DNA of 64,000 nucleotides, taken from positions 1,295,823 to 1,359,822 of the forward strand of contig OZ240229.1 of the NCBI GenBank assembly GCA_965197805.1, in the 5' to 3' direction. The stretch comes from Dehalococcoidia bacterium (lineage in GTDB: Bacteria > Chloroflexota > Dehalococcoidia > Lucifugimonadales > JAAXIE01). The notes under the pieces are model-generated. The model ran no database searches, was not told where the DNA came from, and saw only the letters and a list, made by a program, of their open reading frames with translations. Numbering within the stretch: position 1 is the first letter of the stretch; each line of letters begins with the position of its first letter. Positions 2,951 to 21,833 of this stretch are shown here, piece by piece. A program made the position numbers and the translations under genes.

Positions 2951-3023
2951 GTCAGCCGCCTTTCCGCTCTACTGGGATGTGGTAACTCCATGGTCATGGG
3001 GAGTCAGGGCACGCCCATCCTAA

Positions 3024-3044: not shown

Positions 3045-3066
3045 GACGAGGGTACCCTTATTCATA

Positions 3067-3738
3067 CTAGCCTTGGGTACCCTTGCGGTTGTCGGCGCCT
3101 CGCAGCCAAGTGTAGACGAGCGACGCGGCCGCGGCTCCCACTACCGGTCCGACGATGTACAGCCACTGGCTGGTCCAAGTCCAGCCGACTAGCGCGGGGC
3201 CGAGAGAGCGGGCTGGGTTCATAGAGGCTCCGGCGATGGGGCCAGCGAAAGTAGACTCCAAGGCCACAGTCGCGCCGATGGCAATTGCGGCGATGTTGCC
3301 CTCGGCGCGGGCATCGGTGGCCACGGCCATGATGACGAACATCAGGAAGAAGGTGAGCACGACCTCCAAGCCAAGTGCTTGTGGGTCGTTCCCAGTAGGC
3401 AGAGTGGCCCCCATGTTGGCCACGTCACCCAGAATCGCGAGGAGGGTCAGTCCTGCGGCGGCTGCGCCTGCCAGTTGGGCGAGGATGTAGCAGGGGACTC
3501 GCTTCCAAGGGAAGTGGCGGCTGATGGCAAAGGCCAAGGTGACTGCCGGATTGATGTGTGCCCCTGAGATGTGGCCCGTGGCGAATATCATGGCCGCCAC
3601 GATCAGCCCAAAGGTGAGGCCGATCCCGAGGTGGGTCACCCGTCCGCCGCTGAGCTCGTCGACCATGATGGCCCCAGCTCCAGCGAATAACAGGCCGAAG
3701 GTGCCTATGAACTCAGCAACACAGGCCCTTATCAGCAT
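3067..3738 (-). CDS. MIP-family channel (aquaporin / glycerol facilitator)
   Basis: Two NPA boxes ('HINPAVT', 'SMNPARS') in a hydrophobic six-helix pattern. ATG at 3738 gives the usual N-terminus 'MLIRACVAEFIGTF'. The ORF stays open to a TTG at 3858. Confidence 0.9.
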   Translation of the reverse strand: MLIRACVAEFIGTFGLLFAGAGAIMVDELSGGRVTHLGIGLTFGLIVAAMIFATGHISGAHINPAVTLAFAISRHFPWKRVPCYILAQLAGAAAAGLTLLAILGDVANMGATLPTGNDPQALGLEVVLTFFLMFVIMAVATDARAEGNIAAIAIGATVALESTFAGPIAGASMNPARSLGPALVGWTWTSQWLYIVGPVVGAAAASLVYTWLRGADNRKGTQG

Positions 3739-3886
3739 CGGCGAGGCGCGGCCATGCGACTGTTCAGGATCCAGGCGTCTGTCCGGCTTGATTGGCCTCC
3801 GTAATACCGAGTTGCCCAGTAGTCCAAGCCGTAGAGTCCCGTCTAGGATACTTTGCAAAACCCCTTCCTCCTCGAAAGGGGAAGGT

Positions 3887-3947
3887 GGCTTTGTTCCAAA
3901 AACCTAGCTTGTTCCAATAATCGGCGAGTTGTTCCAAAAAAGCTAGC
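3887..3947 (+). repeat. Left-end array of three direct TTGTTCCAA-core repeats
   Basis: CTTTGTTCCAAAAACC (3889-3904), TAGCTTGTTCCAATAATC (3905-3922) and GAGTTGTTCCAAAAAAGCTAGC (3926-3947). The reverse complement of 3903-3922 matches 20280-20300 at 20/21 positions, with one extra A. Confidence 0.7.
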
Positions 3948-4634
3948 CCAGTTGACTAGTAGTGGGGGGCTGCAGAGAAGCATCTAGGCGTGACGGCACA
4001 AGGACGATATCTTGTCGACGCGGTAAGCGGTTGAGAAAGACGGCGCTCGACATGCGGGTTTTGGCCTACACCGAGGCTTTGTTGCACAATTCCAGCGTTT
4101 CGCAACAGCAGCTAGGTTTTGCGACAAGGCCAGCGGGCAGTACCATAACCTACCTGCCCCGCGCCCGGATGGATACGCGTGGCCAAATGCTTCTTTACTC
4201 TCCGGTATCTTGTACCACTCGCCACCTTCTGGGGGTATGGCGTAGGCGCGAATTGTCGGAACGGCATCGGGGGCAATTGCGTTGCAACTCGACCACTTGC
4301 CTGTTGGGGACTCCTCGGAGTCCGTCACGCGGTATTCTCGGATGGCCTTCTCCTGCTGCAGGGTCTCCCGGTCGCCCTACTGTTTCGGCAGTTCCATCAC
4401 CATCTCCAGCAGGGCTTTGCATCAGAATAGCCTCTTGCTGCAAAATACATCATCCTGCTACAAAATCCCCACCGAGGACATTGGGCTTCGCATCAAGACT
4501 TTCGGTTTATGGCACCCGATAAGGAGAGTTCGGAGGCCACACTCGACGGACTGGACTGGCCAGACGTGCTAGCTGGTCCTTCATCGGATAGCTAGCTGGC
4601 CGTAGGCGCGGTGGGCCATTAAATGTTCCTATGT

Positions 4635-5303
4635 TCACACTGTAGAGTGGTGGCCTACGCGAGCCCACAGGTGGGTAAGGCGGAAGGGCGAGATAGGGTA
4701 ACCGCGGACCAAGTCGTGTTCATATTCTGCGGTTGTTTCACCGTCACGGTGCCTGATGTCTAAGGGTGGAACAGACTCCGTAACAGCGATGGAGTTAATT
4801 CTAGTCAGCGCGTCATCCAGAAGAACCTTCTGCAAGTAGCCCACCATTGCGCCGCTTTGCATCCCCTTTCCATAACTATGATCTTCGTCGATGAAGCGGG
4901 CGATACCCGATCTAACGTACTCGCGGGCATATCTGGTGGCAGGATCGGTCAGCCGTTTGCACTCAACCACGAATTGCTTACAGGCATCGTTTTCATCCTC
5001 CGCGAGGTTGTCGATATAGGGCCAATAAATGTCGGGTCTTTTGAACTCTCGTGGAGTTTGGTGTAGGTCTGATGGTGCCGGCAGGTTACGACCGTCAAGA
5101 ACAGCCGGAGGAATGTGCGCTATATGCTGCCCGGCTCGATGGGACACGCGAATTAGAGTTTTGTACAATTCACGGTTGAGGCTATTCTCATCCGCATCCA
5201 GATATTGGTCGCCAAGCAACATCAAAGCTTCGCGCAGCAACTCTACGCAGGTCCTCACGTGGTCGCTCCAAAGGTCGATGGATGAGAATACTGGGCGTGT
5301 CAT
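4635..5303 (-). CDS. Small PD-(D/E)xK-type nuclease-like protein, putative restriction partner of the upstream MTase
   Basis: 222-aa ORF. 'RPDIYWP' is followed about 20 residues later by 'VVECKRL' (D...ExK core). Its start overlaps the MTase stop (ATGA at 5300-5303). Confidence 0.55.
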   Translation of the reverse strand: MTRPVFSSIDLWSDHVRTCVELLREALMLLGDQYLDADENSLNRELYKTLIRVSHRAGQHIAHIPPAVLDGRNLPAPSDLHQTPREFKRPDIYWPYIDNLAEDENDACKQFVVECKRLTDPATRYAREYVRSGIARFIDEDHSYGKGMQSGAMVGYLQKVLLDDALTRINSIAVTESVPPLDIRHRDGETTAEYEHDLVRGYPISPFRLTHLWARVGHHSTV

Positions 5304-8300
5304 AGCCTTCTGGCAGACATCAGTTGCGCGGCTGTCGCGTCAGCATCTTGCCAAGCTGCACTAGCACTCCATAAACGTCGCTCGTCACGCTTTACGATTA
5401 TGATCGATGTGTCAGTCACAGCTCGCACTGTGCCGTAACGCAACATTGATTGCGCTTGGGTTCTGTTCCATTCCACTCCGAGCCGATTCAATGCCGACCA
5501 CCAACCCTCGTCTCCCTCCTTATTCGGGAAGGGGAATCTATTCCCTTCACCGCCGAGGGTTTCAAAAACTACTGCGACCACACCTTCCACCGGCTCACGC
5601 CATATCCTCCAACTAAGTTCTCCAATAGCACGAAGCCTTTGGTTCCAAGCTCTAAGGAACACAATCAAGTACGGGTCCAGCCCTTCTTTACTGTGGGGGT
5701 CCAGGTCAGCTTCGGTACCTCGCACCGCGGCGATGTGAGCAACCGATTGAGTTGCGTCTGTACTCTGACTTACCCAGAAATCGGCCACTAGGCTACGCTC
5801 TGAGTCTGTGAGTTCGAAAAGGTCAGCCACCGCTTCGTCAACATGAGCCATATGAGCGGCAATACCATGTCTTGCGACTTGGTCACCGAGCGTGTTCATG
5901 TCGCGCAAGTCACCGACGGCCGTCCGAATCTTGCGAGTGGTTACGTCCCAGACTGCCGGCATCCGTGTTGGAAGTTCGAGTAGGTCCCCTGAGCGTACCT
6001 CGTCTGCCCAGGTTCCCCATGATCCAGACACCATATATAACCAATAACGCCCCAAGGACGACACAAGGGTCCCAAGAATGATCTCAGCCTGCCATGGTTG
6101 CAGATGGGTGAGAGAAATCCCGTATGTCGTATGGCGAAATGCAAAGGGTTCTGTTTCAAGCCTGGCATGTGGTCCAAATCCAGGGGACACCCCCCTGCGT
6201 ATTAGCAAGCGTTGTCCCCTGAACAGACGCTCGTCCGGCACAAATTTAACGCGCGATGGGACAGATTCAAACCACTCATCCTTGAGGGCTCCCCAAGAGT
6301 CGAATTTAACGAGGCTCCTCAAGTCGCGCAGTGTCATCGACGGCGAATGTCCTGTTGAGTCGTCCCCTCTCTGAAAACCGTAACCACAAAGCTTCTTGGA
6401 CTCCGTCCAATCGCGCAATTGGTCTTCGACCGCAAGGCGGGCCAAAAAAGCGTCATCACGCGGAGATCCGGCAGTATACGTTTTCCACAAATAGTCACGG
6501 GTACGTAATGAGGTTTGCACCACCATTTGCCGGTCCATACGCGCAAGTGCGGATGACCCACGTCTTCCGCGAGGGACGGGGCGAGCCGTTTCGTAGACGA
6601 CCATCCCGCTTCTTTGGTCTAGTGCACGACGAAACCGGACCAACATAAACGGAGCGACCCCAGTCTTAAAGAAATCTCTCCGGACATGGCTGAAGTTGAC
6701 TACGTGTTCAAGTTTCGCCTCTCCAAGCCACTGTTCACGGAATCTGCGAGACGTGGGCCTAGTATTTAGCAGGGCTTTCGCACTTATTAAGAGGGCAGCC
6801 ACCCCACCGGTCGCCAAGAGGTCTAAGGCTCGCCATAAGAAGAGCTGCGACGGACTTCGGTCTCCAATGGTACGATTGAGCCGAGAAGCCCACTGCTCTG
6901 CCTTAGACTTACCGCCTTTAAGTTCACTCCATGGCGGATTCCCAACTACAACGCCAAAGCCCTCTGTCGTCCAAGGCAATCCGTCCTGTTGCCCGGTATA
7001 ATGTTCGTTGTTCGAGGTATGTTCTCCCTGCCTGGGCGAGAAGGCGTCACCCACGACAAGCGGTGCCATATTCCGTCCCTGTTCTCCGCGCTGGTGGATT
7101 AGCCTAGGAAGAGGCCCGGCTTTCAGTATATCGTTTGGCTGTTGGTAATTCAGAAACGCGATGTATAGGCTGAAGGCAGCTAGCCTAATCGCACCTTCGT
7201 CGATGTCGCACCCTGCAATACGCTGCAATAGTAACTCTTGGAGACGGCCCCTAGTTAGGGGTCGTTCCAGTTTCAACATCTCGTGCCTTACTATTCGACG
7301 ATACGCTTCGACGAGAAAAATCCCTGACCCACATGCAGGGTCGCAGACGGTGGGCTCTTGCTCAAGGGTGTTGTCATCAAGTACGTCAGCAATAACGGAC
7401 CCAACCAATTCAGGAGGGGTATAATAGGCATCAGCTAACTTTTTGGTCACCTCCTCATGATGGAACAGTTCGTACATATTGGAAACAAGATCGGTAGGAA
7501 CAACACTAAAGTCATACGCCCAAAGGAAGAGCCTTTCTTGGTTAGCACTTATGTCCCCTTTCAGTAGGCTCTGGAGGAGGCATAGTTGTTCCTCAGTGAC
7601 AGCTTCGCGTTCGTCATTTTCGGCGATGAATAGGTCGCGGTTGAAGTGCCCAGCGAGTTGGTCAAATAGGGCGTAAGTAAGTTCTTTGCTCGCCAAGAAT
7701 CGAATGAAGTTACTTGTCGGACCAAAGTCTACTGGAGCCTCATTGACACCGACTCGATTGAGTGGTTCCGGAAGCTTCGACGCTACTTCATCAAAGTATG
7801 CATCGGTGAGAATGGTTCGGTCTTCGAGGTAACGGACAAGAATGGCACGCTCAATAAGGGTATGAGAGAGCCTACGAGTTAACCCTGCCGATACAAGGGC
7901 TGTAGTAGCCGAGCGGACATCACGCAACAGCTGTTGGTCGGCCCGTCCGGTTTGATTACCCATTTGAGGATGTTCAAACGTCACGCCCGATTCTAGGCGA
8001 GACCTGTGGAAACGAGAGAGCTGTTCTGCAACATCCGCCGCTCTTGTCACGACCTCTAGAGGCGTCAAAGGCCTCCTACTAACGCCGGGCGTCGTCGGAA
8101 GACTCGCGAGCGAATAGACACGAAGCTCGTCTCCAACTGCCAAGAACAGATATCGAGGCCGGGCAAGACTCCATGCTCGACGGTAGCAGTGGAGCACATC
8201 GCGTTCATCCGATTCGGCTGGTAGAGACGTAAAGACGAGAACCGGATCATCGTTCAGAAAAAAGACTCTTTCCGCCTTGACACGTGCGGCGAGCAACAGC

Positions 8301-8449
8301 CAGTCACCTACTTCGCGCCATCTAGACCGGTTGGAGTCAAAGGACGGGGCTTCCGTGGCTTCAAGTAACATGCCGCTGACTAAGTCAAGGTCGGCGTACA
8401 CACGATCAAGGAGTGGAGATGGTGGATAGGTGGAGGGCATTCTAGTCAT
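5300..8449 (-). CDS. Large gamma-class N6-adenine DNA methyltransferase (type IIG / Eco57I-PglX-like) with unassigned N- and C-terminal regions
   Basis: 1049-aa ORF with motif X 'AYYTPPELV', motif I 'DPACGSGIFLVEAY' and motif IV 'VVVGNPPWSEL'. The upstream helical region has 'FNRDLF'. The ~480-aa C-terminus is TRD-like. Confidence 0.8.
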   Translation of the reverse strand: MTRMPSTYPPSPLLDRVYADLDLVSGMLLEATEAPSFDSNRSRWREVGDWLLLAARVKAERVFFLNDDPVLVFTSLPAESDERDVLHCYRRAWSLARPRYLFLAVGDELRVYSLASLPTTPGVSRRPLTPLEVVTRAADVAEQLSRFHRSRLESGVTFEHPQMGNQTGRADQQLLRDVRSATTALVSAGLTRRLSHTLIERAILVRYLEDRTILTDAYFDEVASKLPEPLNRVGVNEAPVDFGPTSNFIRFLASKELTYALFDQLAGHFNRDLFIAENDEREAVTEEQLCLLQSLLKGDISANQERLFLWAYDFSVVPTDLVSNMYELFHHEEVTKKLADAYYTPPELVGSVIADVLDDNTLEQEPTVCDPACGSGIFLVEAYRRIVRHEMLKLERPLTRGRLQELLLQRIAGCDIDEGAIRLAAFSLYIAFLNYQQPNDILKAGPLPRLIHQRGEQGRNMAPLVVGDAFSPRQGEHTSNNEHYTGQQDGLPWTTEGFGVVVGNPPWSELKGGKSKAEQWASRLNRTIGDRSPSQLFLWRALDLLATGGVAALLISAKALLNTRPTSRRFREQWLGEAKLEHVVNFSHVRRDFFKTGVAPFMLVRFRRALDQRSGMVVYETARPVPRGRRGSSALARMDRQMVVQTSLRTRDYLWKTYTAGSPRDDAFLARLAVEDQLRDWTESKKLCGYGFQRGDDSTGHSPSMTLRDLRSLVKFDSWGALKDEWFESVPSRVKFVPDERLFRGQRLLIRRGVSPGFGPHARLETEPFAFRHTTYGISLTHLQPWQAEIILGTLVSSLGRYWLYMVSGSWGTWADEVRSGDLLELPTRMPAVWDVTTRKIRTAVGDLRDMNTLGDQVARHGIAAHMAHVDEAVADLFELTDSERSLVADFWVSQSTDATQSVAHIAAVRGTEADLDPHSKEGLDPYLIVFLRAWNQRLRAIGELSWRIWREPVEGVVAVVFETLGGEGNRFPFPNKEGDEGWWSALNRLGVEWNRTQAQSMLRYGTVRAVTDTSIIIVKRDERRLWSASAAWQDADATAAQLMSARRL

Positions 8450-8782
8450 TCACGGCTTCGCGGTTGTAGGGTCCGCAGCAGTGTGAATACGACTTTGCGG
8501 TCATATTCGGGAAGAACGCAAGGTCAAACGCCGAGCACACATTTAGTAGACACCCCGTACGGTGTCATCTGTGACTCGGGTATCTGCCGTGGCCTTGGGG
8601 GTGGTCCACGAGGGCCGCAAGCATCAGCTCCCCAATAGCTCGTTCCAAGCGCTCGGCTATCGTACCGTCCGCTTGACCATAAGCAATAATTGTAGTCTAA
8701 GCGTGGTGCTTATTGGGGAAGCCTATCACAGGGTTACGCCACTGTCGACCTGCGGAAACCGCCAGCGCCCCAGCTCCCCCGC

Positions 8783-9034
8783 CTACGCTACCGCCCGGAC
8801 CATCCAGCGCATCATCGCGGATTGTCCCGCCTTCACCCGCATAAGCACTGTAGCTAGAAAGGCCAAGCAAGACATTTGGGCGTGGAGGGTGATTTGACGC
8901 AACCCTCGCAGGCGGTGTCGCTCCAACCGGCGCGATTCCTTCACCGATTTGAAGACCCTCTCAATGGTGGCCAGGCGTGGATACGGCCGCATTGGTGCGC
9001 CAGAGGCTCCACACGTGGTGTGCGTCGCCATCAC
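8783..9034 (-). pseudogene. C-terminal remnant of an IS4/IS5-type DDE transposase
   Basis: 'ATIERVFKSVKESRRLERHRLRGLRQITLHAQMSCLAFLATVL' is the typical end of the DDE_Tnp_1 domain. No intact upstream ORF; the surrounding frames are broken. Confidence 0.6.
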
Positions 9035-9698
9035 GTGTGGAGAGTTCCGGGCACCGACCCGTTCTCTTATGTCGGGGACAGCACGGGCCAGCAGTTCCCG
9101 TAGGCCATGGTGCCCCTAATGCGGCTTGGCCTCTCCCAACGAATTGGCTATTGTGGCGAGAGGCTAGTGCCACTTTGGCGGTTTTGCCCCTGACTCCTAC
9201 GTTGGGTCCTCTTTCCAAAGCACACCCCGTGGCCGTAGCAATTAGTTGGACGGTTGTGCGGGTCTCAGGGAATTAGCGATGAATGTATTGCCTGATAAGA
9301 GCCCTATGAAACGCTGTTCGTTTAGGAAATAGAGAAGCTCCTTGAGGTCGCGGCGAGTGTTCGGCAAAGCAATCTTGTTGCTCTCCTATAACATTAGGTG
9401 AGCGGACAGCGTCGCAGGACAGGGCCTATTCCTACCGAGCACGCCGAGGGCCGGCCGCTTCAGGGATGACCGGGACCGTTCCTGCTGGTACGTCGTCTAC
9501 CAGAGTTATCGGATGAGGTTGTTGGCCGGTGCGGGAACGGCCAGCAGTGGAGGCGTCAGCGCTGTCTCCATCGCGCCATACCCGTAGTGTCGTTCCAGAA
9601 AGGCATCACGGTAGCAGGTCTTGCTACGACATTTATGGGGTATCTACTCTAACCAGTGCGGGGCGGGGCCCGGTTCACGCTGCGCAGCATGACCCCTC

Positions 9699-12600
9699 TC
9701 ACGTCGGTAGCACTACCTGATAGCAGACGACGCCAAGATCGTCTTCGGTGATGGGATCAGGAGCTCGTGGTGCCTCCACCGGCCGTAGGCCGAACCTCGC
9801 GACAACTTCGATGATGCGGCGGGAGCAGTCCGCCACAGTGATCCCGCCGCCTTCGTACTCCCGGCGGAGGTCCGACAACTCACGGCGCACGAGGTTGTTC
9901 CTGCCGGTGGACAGGGCCTGGTCTCCCTCGTCATATTCTTTACCAGTAGGAGCGTCCGGTAAGCGCAGCACGTCCAACGCCCAACGTTGACTAGCAGGCA
10001 GGGAGGCAAACCTTGTCTCGGGGTCGAGGAGCGCGTTGTGAGTCGTGCAGATGTCATCGGCGGCCACCGCAAAGAGGTGCTCAAGGTCAAGCCCCTCTGG
10101 GAGAGGGCATCCGGCCTGCTGTTGGGGGTCTATAAGCCGAACCATCGGCAAGTCTTCGCGGTACAGTATTTCCCCTGATTGGGACACAGTGCGCCAATAG
10201 CGCTCATCCCTGCGTGTCCGACAGGCGAAGAATACCGCAGGCTCCGCCAGTGTGGACGACCGTTGCACGAAAGCGGCCCCGATTCCCCAAGGCAGACCTT
10301 GGAGCCTGCTCACTTCACCTTCCTCGGCGGCGCGCCGGAGATGGGAGCGGAAAAGCTCACCCGCGAATGCCGAGCCCCCAACGCCCTCCTGTTCGTCCAA
10401 CAGCGCAGCATCCCCTTTGGAAAGACGTTCCACAAACGTGCTCAGGTCTGCGTAAACCTGCGACTCCATCTCTACGTCGGCCAATACAGGGGTCTCCATG
10501 CCCACTGAGGCGTTCGCAGCCATGATCTTGGACTGGAGCTTGGCTTCCAGCTTGAGCAGCCTGTCAAGGTCACCCTGTTTAGGGAGCAGGGTGTAGAGAT
10601 ATGCGGTGTCGTGGGGGCTGCGCAGGCGAATTATGCGACCATTACGCTGCACCACTCGCTGAGGGTTCCAAGGCATATCGAACGAGAGCACTGCTTGAGC
10701 CTGTTGTAGGTTCTGGCCCTCAGACAGTATGTCGGTGCTGATAATGACGTCCACTTCACCGCCATCTGGTCGAAATCCCGGCTCGTCCCGCACGGACTCT
10801 GGGCAGAACCGCTCAAGCTCTCTGGTGCGGGCGTCCGCACTGGTCTCCGAGCCGATGACCACCGTCCAATCACGGTTGTCCAGCACTTCCGGTTGCCTTT
10901 CGATTTGCTCTTTCAGATAAGTTGCTGTGTCCTGAAATGCCGTGAACACGGCGACCTTCTGAGACGGCGTTACGGCCATGACGTCCTTCAGCGTATCCAG
11001 CTTGGGGTCGGGGCTGTGCCTCAGGCTTTCCAACCGCGCCGACAGGGTAGCTAGGCTATCCCGGTCACTCTGCAAGTCAGACAAGAACTGGTCGTCGAAT
11101 CTGTTGGCGGGAATGCCTCCCTCCGAGCCAGCCAGTGCCTCGTCGATCAGGTCAGCGCTGAGGAACGTGTCGTCATCGGCATCGCCGACCAAGTCGCGGA
11201 TGACTTCCGGCGGGGGGACCACTCCCCGCTCTGTGATGACATGGAGCATCACGTCATTCGCATTTCTCATCCTGTTCACAGTTTGCAGAGCCGCGTACCA
11301 TGACGACTCGAAGCGTTTTAACAGCTGTGACTGCATCAGCCCGGCAAGCGCATCTTCTGAAGCGGATACGCCCTCATTGTCTAGCCTATAGGCAGATAAG
11401 CGGTACCTCGCCATTGTCAGACCGTCGACTCCATCGTAGATAAATTGCGCGATTCCAGGGTGTGCGCTGTCCAAGTCGTAGCGGCGCTCGTGCAACTCTG
11501 GCTCTGGGAACTTTACAGGCGTCCCGTCCACGAATCGCTCGTTACGGTACCGTTCCTTGACGAAGGCCCGGTCCCGTCGCACTGTCAGAGCGTCGATTAG
11601 GGGGAACAGCTTCGCCTCCGACAGATTCTCTGACTTCGACGCCCCGGCCTCAGCAAAGAGTGTCCGCAGACTGGTAATCTTCAGCGGCTCGCCGTTGAAG
11701 GCACTATCGTGCCTACCGAACAGGAGGAAGAGGTTATGCAGGTCCCAGAGGGAGTTGTTGACCGGAGTCGCAGTGAGGAGCAGTAGCTTCTTCGTAGTGC
11801 CTCCCATCAGCCGGTCCAGAGCTGCGTACCAGGTGTTGTTTATATTGCGGTAGGCGTGGGCCTCATCAATGATGACGAACCGGTACACGTCCTTGTTCAC
11901 CGGAAGCACCCGTCGCCCGCCGTTGGAAGCCAGTTGGCAGTCCTGCGCCAACTCCTGATAGGACACGACGGTTCCAGGCAGGTTTTCCTCGGCTAGGCGC
12001 TGCTCCCACAGGCGGTCCCGAAGCTGGGCCGGGGAGATTACCAGCACGTGCTGACCCAGGTCGCGGGTGTGCTCCCGGATCAACTGCACGCCGATCTCAG
12101 TCTTGCCCATGCCCACGCCGTCGGCATACAGGACGCCGCCGTAGCGGTCCAGAATCCGTTTTGCCCGCGCCAACCCATCTCGCTGGAAAGCGGTTAGGGC
12201 GTGTAGGTCAGGTATCGGCATTTCGTCATCCAGTTCGTCTCCATAGAGTTCCAGTAGTGCTCGTAAGAAGACGGTCTGAGGGTCGCTCTCCAAGGCAGGT
12301 GGTCGCAGCAGTTCCAACAGTTCTTCGCGGAAGTCCAGGGCATCGTCCCATAGGCGCCGGTGCCAGCCCAACGCCATGCCAACAACATTGGGTTGGTAGT
12401 GCACCATGCCCAGTTCGAGATTGGCGACGAGTCCACCTTGCGTGAGGTTGGCCGACGACACCAGGGCCGCCCCAGGTCCAATCGTAGATCCGCCGTCATT
12501 CAGTTGACCGATGACGTAAGCCTTGCCGTGGAGGAAACGTCGAATGTAACGACGTACTGCAACAGCGTCGGATTCAAAGAAGCGGGTCACCCGGTCCAAG

Positions 12601-12932
12601 ACAGCCCGCCGAAAGGCTGGAAAGGCAGAGAAGTCCCTCTCACGACGCAGAGCTGACACGGACTGGTCGAAACGGTCGGCCACGGTTTCCCCCGGCGAGC
12701 CAGCTAATCCCTCTGGCACCGCTCCGACCAACAGGCGAGTAGGTTGTTCCCTCCCCGCGGCTATCTTGGCTAGCGCGTCCAGCCCCTCAAGACCAATATA
12801 GCCTGTGGCCACATTCAGCGGCGCGGAGTAGTACTCTGCCAGCCATACCAACGCTTGGTGGTGGTTACCGTAGTCAACGTTGTCCACCAGTTCATAGGAG
12901 CCGTGTTGCGAGGCGTTGCTGCTGGCCGTCAT
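9699..12932 (-). CDS. PLD-family nuclease domain fused to an SNF2-family helicase/translocase
   Basis: 1077-aa ORF. PLD motif 'FLHGKAYVIG...LVSSANLTQGG' at aa 133-167. SNF2 motifs 'DGVGMGKT' (aa 271-278), 'IIDEAHAYRN' (aa 354-363), 'LLLTATPVNN' and 'FDMPWNPQRVVQRNGRIIRLRS'. The ~280-aa C-terminus is unassigned. Confidence 0.85.
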   Translation of the reverse strand: MTASSNASQHGSYELVDNVDYGNHHQALVWLAEYYSAPLNVATGYIGLEGLDALAKIAAGREQPTRLLVGAVPEGLAGSPGETVADRFDQSVSALRRERDFSAFPAFRRAVLDRVTRFFESDAVAVRRYIRRFLHGKAYVIGQLNDGGSTIGPGAALVSSANLTQGGLVANLELGMVHYQPNVVGMALGWHRRLWDDALDFREELLELLRPPALESDPQTVFLRALLELYGDELDDEMPIPDLHALTAFQRDGLARAKRILDRYGGVLYADGVGMGKTEIGVQLIREHTRDLGQHVLVISPAQLRDRLWEQRLAEENLPGTVVSYQELAQDCQLASNGGRRVLPVNKDVYRFVIIDEAHAYRNINNTWYAALDRLMGGTTKKLLLLTATPVNNSLWDLHNLFLLFGRHDSAFNGEPLKITSLRTLFAEAGASKSENLSEAKLFPLIDALTVRRDRAFVKERYRNERFVDGTPVKFPEPELHERRYDLDSAHPGIAQFIYDGVDGLTMARYRLSAYRLDNEGVSASEDALAGLMQSQLLKRFESSWYAALQTVNRMRNANDVMLHVITERGVVPPPEVIRDLVGDADDDTFLSADLIDEALAGSEGGIPANRFDDQFLSDLQSDRDSLATLSARLESLRHSPDPKLDTLKDVMAVTPSQKVAVFTAFQDTATYLKEQIERQPEVLDNRDWTVVIGSETSADARTRELERFCPESVRDEPGFRPDGGEVDVIISTDILSEGQNLQQAQAVLSFDMPWNPQRVVQRNGRIIRLRSPHDTAYLYTLLPKQGDLDRLLKLEAKLQSKIMAANASVGMETPVLADVEMESQVYADLSTFVERLSKGDAALLDEQEGVGGSAFAGELFRSHLRRAAEEGEVSRLQGLPWGIGAAFVQRSSTLAEPAVFFACRTRRDERYWRTVSQSGEILYREDLPMVRLIDPQQQAGCPLPEGLDLEHLFAVAADDICTTHNALLDPETRFASLPASQRWALDVLRLPDAPTGKEYDEGDQALSTGRNNLVRRELSDLRREYEGGGITVADCSRRIIEVVARFGLRPVEAPRAPDPITEDDLGVVCYQVVLPT

Positions 12933-12947
12933 ATCTCCCTCTTTACC

Positions 12948-15900
12948 TTAAAGGTCCTCGAACTTCTCCACCACCTGATTGCGGTAGGCCGGGCCAACGG
13001 CGTCCTCAGTGAAGTCTGTGAAGATGAAACGCAATTCATCCTCCGCAAGACCGTAGGCTCTCGCCACCAGCGCGTCTATCTCTGCTCGCATATCGTTGCG
13101 CTGGACGTCGGTCAGCGGGCCATATTCGACTTCGGCCCCAATTGAAAATTCGTAGAATCGTTCGTCGACGCAGGACAATCGCGCCGCAAGTCGGCCAATG
13201 CGGACCCATGGAGTGTTGTCGGGAGGGGGGAAGGTAAGCATATTCAGAATGAAATGGTTAAAGTTCATCTCGACGTATCTACGGGCTAACCAATCGAATG
13301 TGACTGAATTGATCACACCCAATACGGCTGCTTGTGGCAGTGCATTCCATCCACTGAATACCAGATAGGGAGCCGCATTCGTAAGAGGTGTTCGGGGAGG
13401 CACTATGCATGCATTCATGGTGCGCGAGTTCGTTCGGTTGGTGACGTGCCCATAAGCAATTCGGCAGTGGTTTATTGGATGAGTGTCAGGATTTGAGAGG
13501 AAAGTGGACGGGAATATGCTCTTGAAAACACGGGAACGCATTCGCTTATTGTGTACAAAGTCTAAAACCTCATCCCACACACAGTATCCAGCAGGTTCAT
13601 TGCCATGCGGATCGTACTGGTCAAATGAACGACCCTTCCATACTGCGACACCTTGAGAATGGGAGAACAGGGCGCGCTGCTGCGTCTCATGTAATTCCGC
13701 ATAGGGAACTAGATGAGACGCAGCAGCGCGCCCTGTTGCGGTCGTTGTACTTTGGGGATTCTGTAGACAGTCGAACTGAACTCCCCCCCGTATCTTCGTC
13801 AGCAGGTTAGAATGTATCTGGCTTGGTAGGAGAGGCACCACTTTGGCACTTCCCAAAGAGGATGCCGGGATACTAACGCCCTGACTACGGGTGACTTCTT
13901 GGAACTCTCTGAGGCTTGATGATGGCCCCGTGATTCGGAAGGTGGTTAACTCGTAAGGCGTGCTACGCTGGCCGGTCAGTAGCGCCACCGTATAACGAGG
14001 CTCCATATCGAACGCCCAGCGCTTTGCATTCAGCAGATAGTCCACCTTGCTCACTGTTGTCTGCCCAAATAGCCATTCCCTGAATCCCCTAGCTCCCTCC
14101 GCAAGGAACGCTGTTCTGGGTAGCACCACGCCCAGACGCCCTTCCTGCCTGACGAGGTGGCTGTACCGCTCGCAGAAAAGCTGATAAAGGTCTGTGTCGC
14201 CCACGCCTTGCAGCTGATATCCTCCACTATGGGAAAAGAACGCCCGGATGTTTGCTAGACGTACTTGCTCCGCTTCAAACTCCCCACGCCAGTTGGGGTT
14301 CTCTTCATCAAGTGCTGCAATACGTGCGCGCCTGTCCGTCAAATTGCTTATACCTCGCAGTCCGGGTTCCCGCAATAAGTAGAAGCGCAGTTCTTCGATG
14401 GTGACTTCGTTCCACGGGGGATTACCGACGACCACGTCGAACCCCGGGCGCTCACGGTGGAAGACGTTGGGAAACTCCAGTGGCCAGTGAAAGAATCGGT
14501 ACTGGGCAGCGGTGCCCGAGGCCTCGGCCATTACAGTTGCTATCTCAGTGGTCCTGCCGTCGTCACGCGCGACGATCGCGTCAGCATGGGTTTCCAGTGT
14601 GTGACGGGCACCTTCCAGACCTAGAGGTTCCGCCGCCCACAGGTCGAAGACGGACCGCAGACCTGCAGTGGCTCCGTGAAGGTCTGCGCCCATCTCCTCG
14701 GAGCGTTTCACCTCGTCGGGGGTTCGGTCTGGGTTCTCAGCCAGCGTACGCTGCAGATCGGCCGCACGCGTCATCGCATCAGCGACGGCCTGACCGGTGA
14801 ACATCGGGCTATCATTTGCGCCCACCACCAATGGGTCGGCCACTCCAATGAGGGCGTCGCCACACTTGAGATTGCTGCCCAGATAGGAGAGAGCTAGACC
14901 AGGGACGAAGGAAGCCAACCACAGAGTGACGTTTGCCACCTCCACTGCCATTGGTGAAAGGTCAACGCCGTAGATACAACGCTTGAGGATGAGCCGCCGA
15001 AGCAGTTCTCCGTCCTCAGGTGGCCGCGAGGCCAGCCCGTTTTCCTGGCTCAATTCGCTGAGTTGCTGGGCAATACTAGGTAGTCCGCCGACTTCCGCGA
15101 GGAAAATCCCCATTCGGTCAGCTATGATGCCCAAGGCAGCTGTTAAGAAGTGGGCACTACCCATTGCAGGGTCCACAATTGAAAAATCGAACAGCCTGCG
15201 GGTTGCTTCTTTGGGGTTTCGGACAGCCACATTCCTGATTTCTTCCAAGTGTTCATCAAGAGCGGGAAGTAGCGAATGGTTGAGGAGATGGTCTACGAAC
15301 TCACGCCTTGTGTAAAATACGCCCCCAGCTTTGCGTCCACCCGCCTCGGCTTGGTAGTAGAGCTGTGCTTTAGTCACCTCCGGCTGCTCCCCGGCGCGCG
15401 CAGGCCTAAACACGTCCTGCTTGGGATCGTAGGCTAAATCTTCGGGAGCGCGCGTAAGGCGCAGGGTCAACAACGCTTCGTAAATGGCTCCAAGGTGGCC
15501 AATCTGCAGGCCAGCATAGTCCAAGCCCGGAGCGTCAGGCTTGTCGGTTTCATAGGCGATGGCCATCAATGCCGGGACCAGATACACATCAGCGACCTCA
15601 GCCCGTTCCAGCAGATCGCTACCCGGGAAGCCGGCGGCAGCGAAAAGGCTGCCGTTGTAGGCTGGCACCGCGGCAGACCGGTCTCCCGTCCGCACCATCC
15701 GCACCAGCGTACGGAGCCGGTCCCATCGCTGTGTAGCTCTCCGGCTCAAAGACGACTGAGCCAGTCGGGAATCTTCGGCAAGCTGGAGGGCGCTATGTGG
15801 CTGGTATGCTGCCGATCCAATAGGCAAGTAACCGCGGGCTTCTGTGTGCAACAGGAACATGAAACGGAATACCAAGGTAAGTGCAGCCTCTTCTATCTGC

Positions 15901-16937
15901 CGGAGCTGCCCTCGGTCGCTTAAGTCAGCGCCCTGTGTTTCAAGCCACTCTCCAAGCCCTCGTGCTATGTTCGGCAGTGCATCCTGGATGAGCCTCTCTT
16001 CTAGACCCTTGCGTAGCTCCTCTCCGAAGTACTTAACCTCATTGACCCATGTAGTTAGCCACCCGTTCTCCTTCAGCGATTCCGGTGCGAGAAGGCCAAG
16101 GTAGAGGCGGTCTTTCCGCTCCAACTCACCCAGGTCTATCTCCACATGCTGCCCAGTCGCAGGTCCTACCGGGGGTCTCCGCTGAAATAAACGATATCGG
16201 CCTTCTGCAGCTAACACACCCCAATACGCTCCGTGTTGGGCAGAGTCTGCCAATACCATCCCCTCGGGCAGTTCGCCGTTGTCCGTGAGGCGACTGAACT
16301 GATTCGCGTCGCGGTGAAGGTGGAGTACGGCAACTGGAGTTTTTTCGTATCTCAGTAAGTAGCCGCGTTGGGGCAACTGCTCGACCTGGTAGCCCATGCC
16401 CTGGAAGAGAGCACGCCAGTCCATACCGGCAGTAGGTGTTATGCCTTCGATGGCACGGGACAGTCGCTGCTCGTTAATGGGCCAGCGTAGGCGGTCCCGC
16501 AAGAAATGAGGAGTAAGGAGGTCCTTGACCCGGAGGCCGGGGACCACTGCCTCCTCAAGACGGCTGAACTCCCGCGCCAAGAACGACGCGGCTTCACGGG
16601 TTGCCAAGCCTCGGCTCGTCTCCAACAGGCCAAGGACTCGATGGGCAGGCAGCTCGCGAACTGGGCGGGCATCCTGTGGCCCAGCGACGCGTACTTTAGC
16701 TTCCTGGTCTGAAGGAGCCAGCAAGACGACTGGATGGGGCTGACGGCCTTTCCTAGCTTCCCACAATCTGCGCAGATCAGCATCGCTCGCTGCGTGATCG
16801 GCCCACAGGAGGTGGTAGGACGACGTTTCCCAAGCTCTCGCTGAAGACCCCGCCTGAGACGTCCAGCTTCGGCCTTGGCCGTAAGCAGCTTCCAAGCGTG
16901 CAATCAACTGGCTGGTGCTAGGTGATTTCATAGCCAT
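12948..16937 (-). CDS. PglX / type IIG-like gamma-class N6-adenine DNA methyltransferase
   Basis: 1329-aa ORF with 'YNGSLF' (aa 427-432), 'RKAGGVFYTRREFV', motif I 'DPAMGSAHFL' (aa 589-598) and motif IV 'VVVGNPPWNEV'. 15-nt gap with a GAGGGAG SD before the helicase gene. Confidence 0.8.
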   Translation of the reverse strand: MAMKSPSTSQLIARLEAAYGQGRSWTSQAGSSARAWETSSYHLLWADHAASDADLRRLWEARKGRQPHPVVLLAPSDQEAKVRVAGPQDARPVRELPAHRVLGLLETSRGLATREAASFLAREFSRLEEAVVPGLRVKDLLTPHFLRDRLRWPINEQRLSRAIEGITPTAGMDWRALFQGMGYQVEQLPQRGYLLRYEKTPVAVLHLHRDANQFSRLTDNGELPEGMVLADSAQHGAYWGVLAAEGRYRLFQRRPPVGPATGQHVEIDLGELERKDRLYLGLLAPESLKENGWLTTWVNEVKYFGEELRKGLEERLIQDALPNIARGLGEWLETQGADLSDRGQLRQIEEAALTLVFRFMFLLHTEARGYLPIGSAAYQPHSALQLAEDSRLAQSSLSRRATQRWDRLRTLVRMVRTGDRSAAVPAYNGSLFAAAGFPGSDLLERAEVADVYLVPALMAIAYETDKPDAPGLDYAGLQIGHLGAIYEALLTLRLTRAPEDLAYDPKQDVFRPARAGEQPEVTKAQLYYQAEAGGRKAGGVFYTRREFVDHLLNHSLLPALDEHLEEIRNVAVRNPKEATRRLFDFSIVDPAMGSAHFLTAALGIIADRMGIFLAEVGGLPSIAQQLSELSQENGLASRPPEDGELLRRLILKRCIYGVDLSPMAVEVANVTLWLASFVPGLALSYLGSNLKCGDALIGVADPLVVGANDSPMFTGQAVADAMTRAADLQRTLAENPDRTPDEVKRSEEMGADLHGATAGLRSVFDLWAAEPLGLEGARHTLETHADAIVARDDGRTTEIATVMAEASGTAAQYRFFHWPLEFPNVFHRERPGFDVVVGNPPWNEVTIEELRFYLLREPGLRGISNLTDRRARIAALDEENPNWRGEFEAEQVRLANIRAFFSHSGGYQLQGVGDTDLYQLFCERYSHLVRQEGRLGVVLPRTAFLAEGARGFREWLFGQTTVSKVDYLLNAKRWAFDMEPRYTVALLTGQRSTPYELTTFRITGPSSSLREFQEVTRSQGVSIPASSLGSAKVVPLLPSQIHSNLLTKIRGGVQFDCLQNPQSTTTATGRAAASHLVPYAELHETQQRALFSHSQGVAVWKGRSFDQYDPHGNEPAGYCVWDEVLDFVHNKRMRSRVFKSIFPSTFLSNPDTHPINHCRIAYGHVTNRTNSRTMNACIVPPRTPLTNAAPYLVFSGWNALPQAAVLGVINSVTFDWLARRYVEMNFNHFILNMLTFPPPDNTPWVRIGRLAARLSCVDERFYEFSIGAEVEYGPLTDVQRNDMRAEIDALVARAYGLAEDELRFIFTDFTEDAVGPAYRNQVVEKFEDL

Positions 16938-17082
16938 CCACTACTTTATAGACATGCGACAATTTGCACGGGTGATCAGGACCTAGAGGAGAGGCAACAC
17001 AACGTAATGTTGCAAGCTGCCTCTCAATAAATTCCGGAGCCACGTAAACTGGCCAAGCGGGCTGCGCTTCCAGCTCCTTGCC

Positions 17083-17265
17083 TCAGCTCCCACGCCGGTA
17101 GCGGTATTCCTTGTCCCAGTTGGCGCTCTTGCACTTTGGGCAGACGCGTGGCCGTTCCTTGTTCAAACCTTTACTGGTCCACTCGTGTCCGCAACGGCAC
17201 CTGTAGGCCGTTACCTCGATCTTGAATGAACCTGGACGTTTGCCGTCGTCGTCTGCGGTCGCCAC
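17083..17265 (-). CDS. Small Zn-ribbon protein, first gene of the MTase-helicase operon (possible controller)
   Basis: 'CRCGHEW...CPKCKSANW' gives two Cys pairs. GTG at 17265 lies 6 nt after GGAGG (17276-17272) and downstream of the predicted minus-strand promoter. The track ORF extends to 17316, into the palindrome. Confidence 0.45.
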   Translation of the reverse strand: MATADDDGKRPGSFKIEVTAYRCRCGHEWTSKGLNKERPRVCPKCKSANWDKEYRYRRGS

Positions 17266-17287
17266 CTTTGACCTCCGGTGCAATTCA

Positions 17288-17344
17288 CTAATACTATAGA
17301 GTATTAGGGTTGACACTACAACCCGTAATACTCTATAGTATTAG
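17288..17344. promoter_or_regulatory. 25/26-bp inverted repeat containing back-to-back divergent promoters
   Basis: CTAATACTATAGAGTATTAGGGTTG (17288-17312) pairs with CAACCCGTAATACTCTATAGTATTAG (17319-17344). Plus strand: TTGACA (17310-17315), N18, TATAGT (17334-17339). Minus strand: TTGTAG (17321-17316), N17, TATAGT (17298-17293). Confidence 0.6.
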
Positions 17345-17370
17345 TATACTACTGAGCATAGGGTGATGCT

Positions 17371-18633
17371 ATGGTGGAAGCGGCCACCGAACTTGACCTC
17401 CACGGTTCCGACGATGGCCGTCGGCAGCGGGGCCTTGCGATTGCAGCCATCGCTCGCATCACCAAGACCAAGCTGGGCTACAAGGTCCCCTCTCAATCCG
17501 GCGAGGGTTCTTATGCGGTGAACCTCGCTGACGACGACCCCTACTGCAGTTGCCCAGACTTTGAGAAGCGACAGGTGTCTTGCAAGCATATCTACGCAGT
17601 ACGGTACTTCATCCAGCGCGAGGGGCAACAATCTAGCGCTGTGGTGCACTCTCAGAGCCTCCGGCCGACCTATCGGCAAGACTGGCCCGCATATAATGCG
17701 GCACAGGCCCACGAGGGTGAGCACTTCCATACTCTCCTTCGGGAACTCTGCGACACTGTGCCACAGCCCCTACAGGCAGGTAAAGGACGCCCACGGCTGC
17801 CTTTGGCCGATGTGGTATTCGGCATCGGCCTCAAGGTCTACTCAACGTTCTCCGGGCGTCGTGCCATGTCGAACATCCGCACTGCTGAGGCAAACGGTCT
17901 CCTAGATCACGCGCCCTCATTCACCAGCGTGTTCCGATACTTGGAGAATCCTGCCCTGACGCCTGTGCTCAAGTCCTTGATTCAGCAGAGCTCCCTGGCC
18001 CTCACGTCCGTCGAGACCGAATTTGCCGTGGACTCCAGCGGGTTCGCCACCACGACCTATCACCGATGGTTTGACCACAAGTGGGGCAAGGAGATCAAGG
18101 AGGCGGAGTTCGTTAAGGCGCATCTGATCTGCGGAGTTACTACCAACATCGTGACGGCTGCCGAGGCTTCTGTAACTCGAGACAACGATGCTCCTTACCT
18201 GGCCCCGTTCGTGCAGACCACTGCGCAACACTTCATCGTCAATGAAGTCTCCGCCGACAAGGCCTATCTGACGAAACGGAACCTACACGCGGTCCAAGAG
18301 GTAGGAGGTACTGCCTACATCCCATTTAAGTCCAATTCCGTCGCTAGTAACCCCAAGGTGAAGCGGGACCCTCTTTGGACCAAGATGTATCACTACTATC
18401 ATCTCAACCGGGCTGAGTTCTTACAGCACTACCACAAAAGGTCCAACGTGGAAACGACGTTCTCCATGGTCAAAGCGAAGTTTGGCTCCGCAGTCCGTGC
18501 CAAGACTCCGGTCGCACAGATCAACGAGGTCTTGACAAAGGTTCTGTGTCACAATGTCTGCGTGGTTATACAGTCCGCCTACGAGCTGGGGATTAACCCG
18601 GTGTTCTCTCCAACAATGCCCGAGTCGGCCTAG
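17371..18633 (+). CDS. SWIM zinc-finger + DDE (IS4/IS5-type) transposase, paralogue A
   Basis: 420-aa ORF. SWIM motif 'CSCPDFEKRQVSCKHIYAV'. DDE candidates 'FAVDSSGF', 'VSADKAYL' and 'YHKRSNVETTFSMVKAKFG'. Confidence 0.8.
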   Translation: MVEAATELDLHGSDDGRRQRGLAIAAIARITKTKLGYKVPSQSGEGSYAVNLADDDPYCSCPDFEKRQVSCKHIYAVRYFIQREGQQSSAVVHSQSLRPTYRQDWPAYNAAQAHEGEHFHTLLRELCDTVPQPLQAGKGRPRLPLADVVFGIGLKVYSTFSGRRAMSNIRTAEANGLLDHAPSFTSVFRYLENPALTPVLKSLIQQSSLALTSVETEFAVDSSGFATTTYHRWFDHKWGKEIKEAEFVKAHLICGVTTNIVTAAEASVTRDNDAPYLAPFVQTTAQHFIVNEVSADKAYLTKRNLHAVQEVGGTAYIPFKSNSVASNPKVKRDPLWTKMYHYYHLNRAEFLQHYHKRSNVETTFSMVKAKFGSAVRAKTPVAQINEVLTKVLCHNVCVVIQSAYELGINPVFSPTMPESA

Positions 18634-18968
18634 GACCGGGTACCCCTTTGCGCCCTGCGCCTCGAAGGCCACAGATGCCTTATGGTCCCCGACTTCCATA
18701 CCTTCTCGCTCCCACGGGCAGCACATGCATCCTTAAGCAGCTTATCTCCGTCGCTTTGTGACCCTGCACGTTCCGCTGCCTCTGGATCCGGCCAAGTCTC
18801 TAGGTCTGCGACATTCGGTAGCAACCAGCGTGGCAACCGCAATCTATTGTGTCTTCAGACAATCAGGTGCACGTCCCATAAATCCCCCGAAAGTATAGAC
18901 CATCACGGTTGGCACAACGACACGCTACACCGTTAGAGTATGAGGATGTTCCTTAAGTTGGGAGCCGA

Positions 18969-20279
18969 TTGATGCTCGAAGTGGTCACGGCCCTAAGCCC
19001 CGACGATCCCGACGACGGTGACACTGGCCGCCAATCGCGGGGCCTTGCCATCGCAGCCATAGCTCAGATCAGCAAGAACAAGCTGGGATACAAAGTGCCG
19101 TCACAATCTGGCAACGGCACTTACGTCGTAAATGTCTCCGATGAAGACCCGTATTGTAGTTGTCCAGATTTCGAGAAGCGACTAGCTAGATGCAAACACG
19201 TCTATGCCGTGGAGTTCCTGATACAGCGTGAGGAACGGATAGACGGTACAGTCATGGACACTAGAGCTGTCCGCGTTACTTACGGACAAGACTGGCCCGC
19301 CTACAATGCCGCGCAGGCCCACGAGGCCGAGCACTTCGTGACACTACTGCGTGACCTTTGTGACGCGGTGGTGATACAGCCAACGCAGCAGGGCAAGGGC
19401 AGACCGCGCCTGCCCTTGGGTGACGTGGTACTCGGTATTGCTCTGAAGGTCTATTCCACGTTCCCGGGGCGCCGCGCGATGTCGAATATCCGTACTGCCA
19501 AGGCCAACGGGTTGATGGATCATGTGCCCTCGTTTACTAGCGTGGCCCGTTACATTGAGAACCCTGCCCTTACTCCGGTCCTAAAATCCCTGATTGAACA
19601 GAGTGCCCTACCGCTCTCATCAGTGGAAGTCGATTTTGCCGTGGACTCCAGTGCGTTTTCCACCACCACGTATCAGCGATGGTATGACCACAAATGGGGC
19701 AAGACGATTAAGGAGTCCCAATGGGTGAAGGCCCACCTTATTGCTGGGGTCAAGACCAACATCGTGACCTCCGCAGAGGCGACTGTCACCCAAGCCCACG
19801 ATAGTCAGTACTGGCCAGCATTCGTGGAGACCACGGCGCAAAACTTCAAACTAAACGAGGTTTCCGGGGACAAGGCCTACCTAAGTCGAAAGAACCTGTG
19901 GGTGGTGCAAGCGCTCGGCGGAACAGCCTACATCCCCTTCAAGACCAACTCCGTGGCCCACAACTCCAAGGCAGCGGGGGATCACCTTTGGCTCAGGATG
20001 TTCCACTACTACAATTACAACCGAGAGGAGTTTCTGCAGCACTACCATAAACGATCAAACGTTGAGGCTACGTTTCACATGATCAAGGCAAAGTTTGGCG
20101 CACGAGTACGGTCCAAGACTCCGACGGCCCAGGTCAATGAAGTGCTGACCAAGATTCTATGCCATAATATCTGCGTCTTGATTCAGTCGGTCTACGAACT
20201 GGGAATCACTCCGGTTTTCAGCCCACCAAAAATTTTTGGAACAGAAGGGCCAGCTGTTCCAAAAATGGCGTGGGAATAG
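18969..20279 (+). CDS. SWIM zinc-finger + DDE transposase, paralogue B
   Basis: 436-aa ORF (TTG at 18969, ATG at 18972). 'CSCPDFEKRLARCKHVYAV', 'FAVDSSAF', 'VSGDKAYL' and 'YHKRSNVEATFHMIKAKFG'. The 3' end runs into the right-end repeats. Confidence 0.8.
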   Translation: MMLEVVTALSPDDPDDGDTGRQSRGLAIAAIAQISKNKLGYKVPSQSGNGTYVVNVSDEDPYCSCPDFEKRLARCKHVYAVEFLIQREERIDGTVMDTRAVRVTYGQDWPAYNAAQAHEAEHFVTLLRDLCDAVVIQPTQQGKGRPRLPLGDVVLGIALKVYSTFPGRRAMSNIRTAKANGLMDHVPSFTSVARYIENPALTPVLKSLIEQSALPLSSVEVDFAVDSSAFSTTTYQRWYDHKWGKTIKESQWVKAHLIAGVKTNIVTSAEATVTQAHDSQYWPAFVETTAQNFKLNEVSGDKAYLSRKNLWVVQALGGTAYIPFKTNSVAHNSKAAGDHLWLRMFHYYNYNREEFLQHYHKRSNVEATFHMIKAKFGARVRSKTPTAQVNEVLTKILCHNICVLIQSVYELGITPVFSPPKIFGTEGPAVPKMAWE

Positions 20280-20298
20280 GATTATTGGAACAAAGCTA
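20232..20298. repeat. Right-end repeat array of the candidate transposon
   Basis: ATTTTTGGAACAG (20232-20244) and CTGTTCCAAAAAT (20254-20266) form a perfect 13-bp palindrome with a 9-nt loop. The terminal copy is GATTATTGGAACAAAGCTA (20280-20298). Confidence 0.7.
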
Positions 20299-20418
20299 GG
20301 GGAAGGTTGGGATGGGGGTGGAAGACATGAATTGCAAGCTACGCCCCGTGTACAAGGAGCCCACGCCTCACGTTAGCATCATCGAAATACAGGGAGTCTG
20401 TCGGGATAGAAGAGGCCG

Positions 20419-21817: not shown

Positions 21818-21833
21818 TCGAGTCGCGCCGAGA

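Follow-up and report, generated by a model that had tools for sequence, protein, structure and literature searches.

How does a 16.4-kb block of defence genes come to lie between two housekeeping genes? The question is raised by a stretch of 64,000 nucleotides from a Dehalococcoidia bacterium (assembly GCA_965197805.1, contig OZ240229.1, positions 1,295,823 to 1,359,822 of the forward strand). This whole stretch is called the window here, and positions are counted from its first letter. In it, restriction-methyltransferase genes and two transposase genes, tnpA and tnpB, separate the AIM24 gene from an aquaporin gene. The block is a recently inserted transposon, a distant relative of the insertion sequence (IS) IS903, which landed in a small hairpin repeat. 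With high confidence, the segment 3887-20297 is read as one unit, that is, a non-composite DDE transposon with inverted ends, a target duplication and defence genes as its cargo.

The empty site

The window contains 16,411 bp (3887-20297) between two copies of the 10-mer AGGGGAAGGT. A counterpart that lacks this segment is found in the metagenome contig L001 (ENA ERZ25067264), which was retrieved by exact look-up of the AIM24 protein. There, AIM24 and the aquaporin gene are separated by 139 bp, and the junction sequence (...ccccttcctcctcgaaAGGGGAAGGTtgggatgggggtggaag...) contains the 10-mer once. By BLAST, L001 matches window positions 2649-3886 at 99.9% identity and 20298-23487 at 98.1%. Both matches overlap by exactly 10 bases, which are AGGGGAAGGT, and 3886 is joined directly to 20298. 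Because this empty site has a single 10-mer, the 16,411 bp are an insertion with a 10-bp duplication, and a chance direct repeat is ruled out.

A preliminary description of this DNA had proposed a transposon with inverted ends, a target duplication and defence cargo, and had suggested looking for an empty site with a single copy of the repeat. L001 is such a site and, together with the rule for ends and duplications that the relatives follow, it bears the proposal out. The 9-bp direct repeat described then (GGGGAAGGT, at 3878-3886 and 20299-20307) is present; when the preceding A is added, it becomes the 10-bp repeat. With ...AGCTA as the right end, the duplication would be 9 bp long, but 10 bp is the best reading. 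A scan for terminal inverted repeats accompanied by exact direct repeats of 8-11 bp returned one pair only in the whole window. The element has the attributes of a unit transposon, or IS with passenger genes: one pair of ends, a duplication, and both transposase and passenger genes inside.

The ends and their repeated sites

The element runs from GGCTTTGTTCC... to ...GGAACAAAGCT, with three TTGTTCCAA sites at each end. Its terminal tips agree at 14 of 16 positions, the left one being GGCTTTGTTCCAAAAA and the right one, when read towards the interior, AGCTTTGTTCCAATAA; the inverted tips and triple copies seen earlier are confirmed. With at most one mismatch, TTGTTCCAA lies at 3891, 3909 and 3929 (all on the plus strand) and at 20236 (minus), 20254 (plus) and 20285 (minus); the window as a whole has 19 such matches against 9.4 expected. 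A one-base gap is all that distinguishes the second left copy (3905-3922) from the right terminus. The right-end copies had all been assigned to the last codons of tnpB, which is correct for two of them, while the terminal one lies beyond the tnpB stop codon (20277-20279).

The same layout is found across the transposase family. The 9-mer at positions 5-13 of the terminal inverted repeat (TIR) recurs in direct orientation at positions 5, 23 and 43 of the left end and, read inward, at positions 5 (plus), 36 (minus) and 54 (plus) of the right end. The full left triplet is present in the window and in L019, L022, L032, L033, L037, L039 and L041, and the full right triplet in the window and in L023, L032, L037 and L047, both being complete in L032 and L037. 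The sequence of the 9-mer itself varies (TTGTTCCAA, TTGCCCCAA, TTGACCCAA, TTGCTACAA, TTGCCTCAA, TTGATGCAA). Such constancy of spacing despite variation in sequence argues strongly, on comparative grounds, that the binding sites are real. The three 9-mers per end are most likely bound by a transposase. The fixed three-site architecture with its co-varying sequence is also a data set for the study of transposase-DNA recognition.

The right-end repeats encode the end of the protein. Across the family (P0001-P0120), the last ~15 residues of the transposase (for instance, FGTEGPAVPKMAWE, GLFVQDGQLHKMSA and GLLEQNGQLFQKSA) form types that track the end-repeat sequence. The C-terminal tail of the transposase thus appears to be dictated by the overlapping DNA sites that encode it.

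The mobility module and its transposases

The rightmost 3.2 kb of the element constitute a mobility module, which comprises a zinc-ribbon gene, a putative operator, tnpA, tnpB and the right end; the left end is only ~57 bp long. The two transposases are 72% identical to each other, and each is ~70% identical to the rest of the family. A promoter-like sequence, TTGACA-18-TATAGT (11 of 12 positions), is located at 17310-17339, within and between the palindromic arms of the putative operator. Between tnpA and tnpB there is only degenerate similarity to the zinc-ribbon gene, with no open reading frame (ORF). The ratio of nonsynonymous to synonymous substitution rates (dN/dS) is 0.09-0.36 for tnpA, 0.16-0.21 for tnpB and 0.03 for the zinc-ribbon gene. 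As these values are well below 1, all three genes are maintained by purifying selection.

The transposases had been attributed to the IS4 type. This must be revised, as the IS4 profile NF033592 yields only 24.5-27 bits against a cutoff of 115 (27 bits at best). The best NCBIfam profile of both proteins is NF033579, with 117.5 bits for TnpB and 113.7 bits for TnpA, scores that are under its 140-bit cutoff; it is also the best profile of IS903B, which reaches 356 bits. In the alignment of IS903B with residues 108-400 of TnpB (21% identity), the catalytic D, D and E coincide, and the IS903-type motif Y-2-R-3-E-6-K can be read from the sequence (YHKRSNVEATFHMIK). The zinc ligands C63, C65, C75 and H77 are invariant in an alignment of 24 family members, as are D226, D301 and E366. 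By these sequence characters, the tandem transposases are classified as SWIM-finger DDE enzymes of the IS5 family, IS903 type. Among solved structures, a sequence search found no relative; a mediocre model of the transposase structure (predicted local distance difference test score, 66.5) matched only DDE/RNase H-like proteins of a generic kind, namely the P element, HIV integrase and Tn5; and the plasmid collection gave only IS5-family matches at ~25% identity. No TnsA, TnsB (rve) or TnsC ATPase domain, which would indicate a Tn7-like element, was found in any gene of the element.

Together, these parts point to a likely mechanism. A transposase would bind the three 9-bp sites of each end, both ends would be paired, and the whole segment would be inserted through staggered cuts 9-10 bp apart, probably by cut-and-paste chemistry. 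The zinc-ribbon protein may repress tnpA at the palindrome and promoter of 17287-17345. With such short ends (57 and 67 bp) and a defined target, the proposed mechanism is directly testable in vitro.

A repeated hairpin as the target

The 9-mer GGGGAAGGT occurs six times in the window against 0.8 expected. It is over-represented because it is part of a dispersed hairpin repeat (CCCCTTCC-loop-GGGGAAGGTTrGGATGGGsGTG) that resembles repetitive extragenic palindromes (REP). One such hairpin, at 3859-3886, is situated downstream of AIM24 on the minus strand and is followed by a T-run. The element landed in this hairpin, between AIM24 and the aquaporin gene. A second repeat of this kind is unoccupied, its segment 3010-3031 being the reverse complement of 20299-20320 at 91% identity.

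The same target is seen in contigs with a transposase at least 90% identical to TnpB, referred to here as close relatives. Three of their four further readable junctions abut the same 10-mer: the right end CAAAGCC is followed by GGGGGAAGGTtggga in L004, by GGGGGAAGGTtagga in L005/L006 and, with the repeat inverted, by ACCTTCCCCC in L002. In L004, the duplication GGGGGAAGGT also falls in the REP-like repeat. The repeat is therefore a preferred target of this lineage, and the preference is strong. According to the preliminary description, an identification of GGGGAAGGT with a REP-like element would make the direct repeat coincidental. The identification is factually true, but it does not refute a transposon, since the repeat is the preferred target. 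In the more distant relatives, the reconstructed target sites point in the same direction: a perfect stem of at least 7 bp is present in 15 of 34 sites (44%, window included) but in only 3% of control windows, the typical stem being CCCTCTCC/GGAGAGGG with the duplication over the loop.

Defence cargo on a constant module

The ~13 kb of cargo in the window, all of whose genes are on the minus strand, encode two type IIG-like enzymes, an HKD-SNF2 protein and a 222-aa protein, and include a dead IS. The type IIG profile matches the 1329-aa protein over nearly its full length and also matches the 1049-aa protein, so that both are probable restriction-methyltransferases of this type. The cargo presumably protects against phage. 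The earlier statement that all inner genes serve defence or mobility was too broad, as the 222-aa and 186-aa ORFs match nothing and the dead IS is also there. Assignment to the defence island system associated with restriction-modification (DISARM) was considered and rejected because there is no DrmA or DrmB gene; the matches are DrmMI-like and DrmD-like only. The dead IS remnant (8783-9034) is located in a gene-free gap of 1.25 kb (8450-9698), which suggests that the cargo is a mosaic of two modules. Within the 1329-aa ORF, there is an inverted repeat at 13666-13737 (33-nt arms, 94% complementary, 6 nt apart), through which the ORF runs.

All close relatives carry the tandem tnpA-tnpB pair, and the module (window ~17080/17093-20296) is 91-97% identical in them. 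The exception is L099, in which another IS cuts the module in tnpB, at window position 19264, and the right junction is lost. Their cargo comprises bacteriophage exclusion (BREX), phosphorothioation and type III-like systems. L002 has a ResIII helicase and a 921-aa N6_N4 methyltransferase; L005/L006 have a cysteine desulfurase, DUF4007, an ATPase, PAPS reductase and DndB, which make up a phosphorothioation system; and BREX genes are found in L098 (BrxC, PglX) and L099 (BrxC, PglX, PglZ). In L004, the element is complete, measures 4,774 bp and shares its ends with that of the window; other copies of the SWIM-DDE gene with such ends, the search for which had been recommended, thus exist. Its sole cargo, at 6663-7565 and abutting the left end, encodes the C-terminal 300 aa of the Lon-like protease BrxL. 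This element appears to have arisen by deletion from the BREX-carrying elements of L098 and L099. No site-specific cargo junction was found; on one side, homology extends no farther than the 3′ end of the zinc-ribbon gene and, on the other, it is lost ~55 bp into the left end.

Alternative histories of the block

Several observations weigh against a single inserted unit that brought its present cargo with it. The close relatives share the module but have quite different cargo, and a cargo turnover that is faster than the divergence of the module implies that part of the cargo in the window may post-date the insertion. Moreover, the two cargo modules are separated by the dead IS. On the right, the element of the window ends with T, where its relatives have C, and the junction of L098 (CAAAGCC followed by GCCGGAGGTG) is in a different sequence, so that the preference for the REP-like repeat is not absolute. 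Exact look-ups of TnpB, P0001 and the 1329-aa protein returned no record of any of them, and a second copy of the exact 16.4-kb element was not found. Finally, a compositional scan, proposed earlier as a check, gave no signal (GC fraction of 0.51-0.60 inside against 0.55-0.61 outside).

Some of these observations would be accommodated if a small element, composed of a left end and the module as in the 4.8-kb element of L004, had inserted first and most or all of the 13-kb cargo had entered later by recombination or secondary insertion. This history would fit unrelated cargo on modules of 91-97% identity, the dead IS within the cargo, and L004 itself, which shows cargo change in place. Elements also recombine with one another, as follows from the contrast in synonymous divergence (dS) between the window and L005, which is 0.33 for tnpA and 0.04 for tnpB. 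Nevertheless, no delimited member of the family is without cargo, the smallest being 3.0 kb, and identical cargo-bearing copies occupy several sites of one genome (see below). Furthermore, the window shows no internal duplication or second set of ends, and the left end offers only ~55 bp for recombination. Later entry of the cargo is thus judged unlikely.

A decayed composite transposon, in which a chromosomal defence island originally lay between two IS copies, the left of which was later reduced to its outer end, is very improbable. IS903 itself forms the composite Tn903, and two transposase genes are indeed present here. However, both stand together at the right end in direct orientation, and L002, L004, L005 and L098 have inherited the pair in the same tandem form. 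The left end of ~57 bp has no transposase remnant nearby, so there is no complete IS at each end, and all 33 delimited relatives are one-sided. Least credible of all is that two REP copies form the direct repeat by coincidence and that the island came by an integrase or homologous recombination: the 9-mer is a dispersed repeat, as its excess in the window shows, but L001 has exactly one hairpin and one 10-mer, the two half-repeats of the window sum to a single repeat and 10 additional bp, the junctions coincide with the canonical GGCTTTG tips that serve as ends family-wide, and none of the genes of the element encodes an integrase.

The wider family

The unit transposon of the window belongs to a large group. 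At E <= 1e-20, the transposase family comprises more than 7,000 clusters, and a genome scan gave 80 loci, mostly from metagenome-assembled Dehalococcoidia and other Chloroflexota, with some from Acidobacteriota, Alphaproteobacteria and archaea. A scan for ends and duplications delimited 33 more distant elements of 3.0-9.1 kb, which have the GGCTTTG tip and duplications of 9 or 10 bp. All of them have the one-sided layout in which the transposase abuts the right end. Together with the window, the 34 delimited elements span 3.0-16.4 kb and all carry extra genes. A simple IS of ~1-1.5 kb was not found even in a relaxed scan, in which candidate left ends without a duplication lay 2.2-7.4 kb from the right end. 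The small divergent gene upstream of the transposase is of either zinc-ribbon or HTH_3 type.

In a set of 75 cargo ORFs (130 aa or longer), the most frequent domains are N6_Mtase (9), Eco57I (4), N6_N4_Mtase (2), Mrr (2) and helicases (2); HSDR_N, AIPR, BrxL, PIN and nested ISs also occur. Of the ten largest cargo ORFs, taken from ten elements, seven encode N6-methyltransferase proteins, most of them type IIG-like. The cargo of the delimited elements is mostly type IIG restriction-modification.

Movement together with cargo follows from OZ253466.1, a metagenome-assembled Dehalococcoidia genome, where three 3.57-kb copies (L034, L036 and L037) are 99.9-100% identical, cargo included, and stand at separate sites; one copy is flanked by a duplication of its own, TGCTGCGTCT. 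In addition, a 1,184-bp block is common to L034 and L036 at 100% identity and lies on opposite sides of their elements; in L034, this block is preceded by a 10-nt left-end tip. The arrangement may be a nested or rearranged structure.

Additional variants and sources were seen. In three Acidobacteriota loci (L080, L083 and L084), the transposase gene is followed tail to tail by a second paralog of ~47% identity, unlike the tandem pair of the window. In the viral collection IMG/VR, 25 contigs (L100-L124) encode family members at 44-57% identity, and five of their elements could be delimited (3.0-3.9 kb, with the same ends and 9-10-bp duplications). A scan of JGI metagenomes with the left-end pattern returned 10 matches, all due to chance and none with a transposase.

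It is possible, though short of probable, that these elements represent a large undescribed IS903-related family that targets hairpins and REP, is never empty and mainly shuttles restriction-modification and other defence genes. In such a family, cargo modules (BREX, phosphorothioation, type IIG, type III-like) would be swapped on the 3.2-kb module, and the paralogous transposases might cooperate. A constant module with interchangeable cargo and insertion into hairpins would explain defence islands beside housekeeping genes in uncultured Chloroflexota.

Comparison with known elements

Insertion at a fixed position of repeated extragenic palindromes, as in the lineage of the window, is known for IS1397 and ISKpn1, which belong to other IS families and have no cargo. 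A single set of ends and a single transposase module with passenger genes inside are likewise the properties of unit transposons and of the elements called transporter IS in ISfinder usage. The closest comparison is with IS903B, which has the ends GGCTTTGTTGAATAAATC and a 9-bp repeat (PMC10569121). The tip GGCTTTGTT is common to IS903B and the element of the window, the DDE_Tnp_1 cores can be aligned, and NF033579 is the best profile for both. In contrast to IS903, which is 1.06 kb long, has one 18-bp repeat at its ends and duplicates 9 bp, the family of the window measures 3-16 kb, always contains cargo, has three sites per end, duplicates 9 or 10 bp (10 bp being the best reading in the window), targets hairpins and includes a small divergent gene for a DNA-binding protein. 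Its transposase also has an additional N-terminal domain of ~105 aa with the SWIM zinc finger.

Tn7 duplicates 5 bp of its target. Tn7-like transposons with defence cargo (Benler et al. 2021, PMC8649781) offer an analogy in that they, too, are unit transposons with asymmetric multi-site ends, preferred targets and a variable, defence-rich cargo on a constant core, an organization to which that of the window may be compared. By contrast, the window element lacks TnsA, TnsB, TnsC and target selectors, its transposase is of another family, and its duplication is 9-10 bp. The literature, in a search that did not cover ISfinder, yielded no account of IS5-like SWIM-DDE elements that carry defence genes. 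An IS903-related unit transposon that combines a SWIM domain, three-site ends, hairpin targeting and defence cargo is therefore apparently undescribed. With its verified empty site, it is a clean case in which a simple DDE transposase, and not a phage, an integrative element or Tn7-like machinery, has moved a defence island of 16 kb.

Features and neighbouring genes

Table 1. Coordinates of the element, its target and its genes in the window
Feature	Position	Strand	Remarks
Second, unoccupied REP-like repeat, far side of aquaporin gene	3010-3050	-	22 nt, 91%
Left part of split REP hairpin (CCCCTTCC-loop-GGGGAAGG), the target	3859-3886		Intact in L001
Left target-site duplication AGGGGAAGGT	3877-3886		Single copy in L001
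Left end: TIR GGCTTTGTTCC and three direct TTGTTCCAA sites at element positions 5/23/43	3887-3943	+	82% identity to L004 left end
186-aa ORF, no family match, possibly not a gene	3962-4522	+	
222-aa cargo protein, no family match	4635-5303	-	Start overlaps stop of upstream methyltransferase
1049-aa type IIG-like restriction-methyltransferase (N6_Mtase, Eco57I)	5300-8449	-	REase_MTase_IIG E 5e-45
C-terminal remnant of unrelated DDE transposase (dead IS)	8783-9034	-	DDE_Tnp_1_6 E 5e-5
1077-aa PLD/HKD nuclease-SNF2 helicase fusion, DrmD-like	9699-12932	-	HKD+Snf2 C3a139 E 3.5e-43
1329-aa type IIG / DrmMI-like restriction-methyltransferase	12948-16937	-	REase_MTase_IIG E 1e-105; DrmMI E 6e-66
Zinc-ribbon protein, 60 aa (CxC...CPKC), divergent from tnpA, putative regulator; start of module	17083-17265	-	dN/dS 0.03
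Putative tnpA operator, two 23-nt palindromic arms, 96% complementary	17287-17345		Overlaps promoter-like site
tnpA, 420-aa SWIM + DDE_Tnp_1 transposase paralog	17371-18633	+	Lacks the repeat-encoded C-terminal tail of TnpB
tnpB, 436-aa SWIM + DDE_Tnp_1 transposase	18969-20279	+	Last codons encoded by right-end repeats
Right end, ...GGAACAAAGCT, sites 5 (+)/36 (-)/54 (+) read inward	20231-20297	-	Inner two sites form a 12-bp inverted pair
Right target-site duplication AGGGGAAGGT	20298-20307		Single copy in L001
REP-like repeat tail TGGGATGGGGGTG, outside element	20308-20320		

On the minus strand, AIM24 is cut off by the insertion from its downstream hairpin and T-run (3858-3886, 20298-20420), and the left end of the element is now 29 nt upstream of the annotated start of the aquaporin gene. 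Consequently, the expression of both neighbours may be altered.

Farther to the right, the window contains a second strain-variable islet (23488-26377; GC fraction 0.495), in place of which L001 has a different sequence of 1.6 kb. The islet encodes an AIPR abortive-infection protein (23586-25352, plus strand) and an N6_N4 methyltransferase (25327-26307, minus strand), and it is adjoined by a PIN-domain gene (22591-22989).

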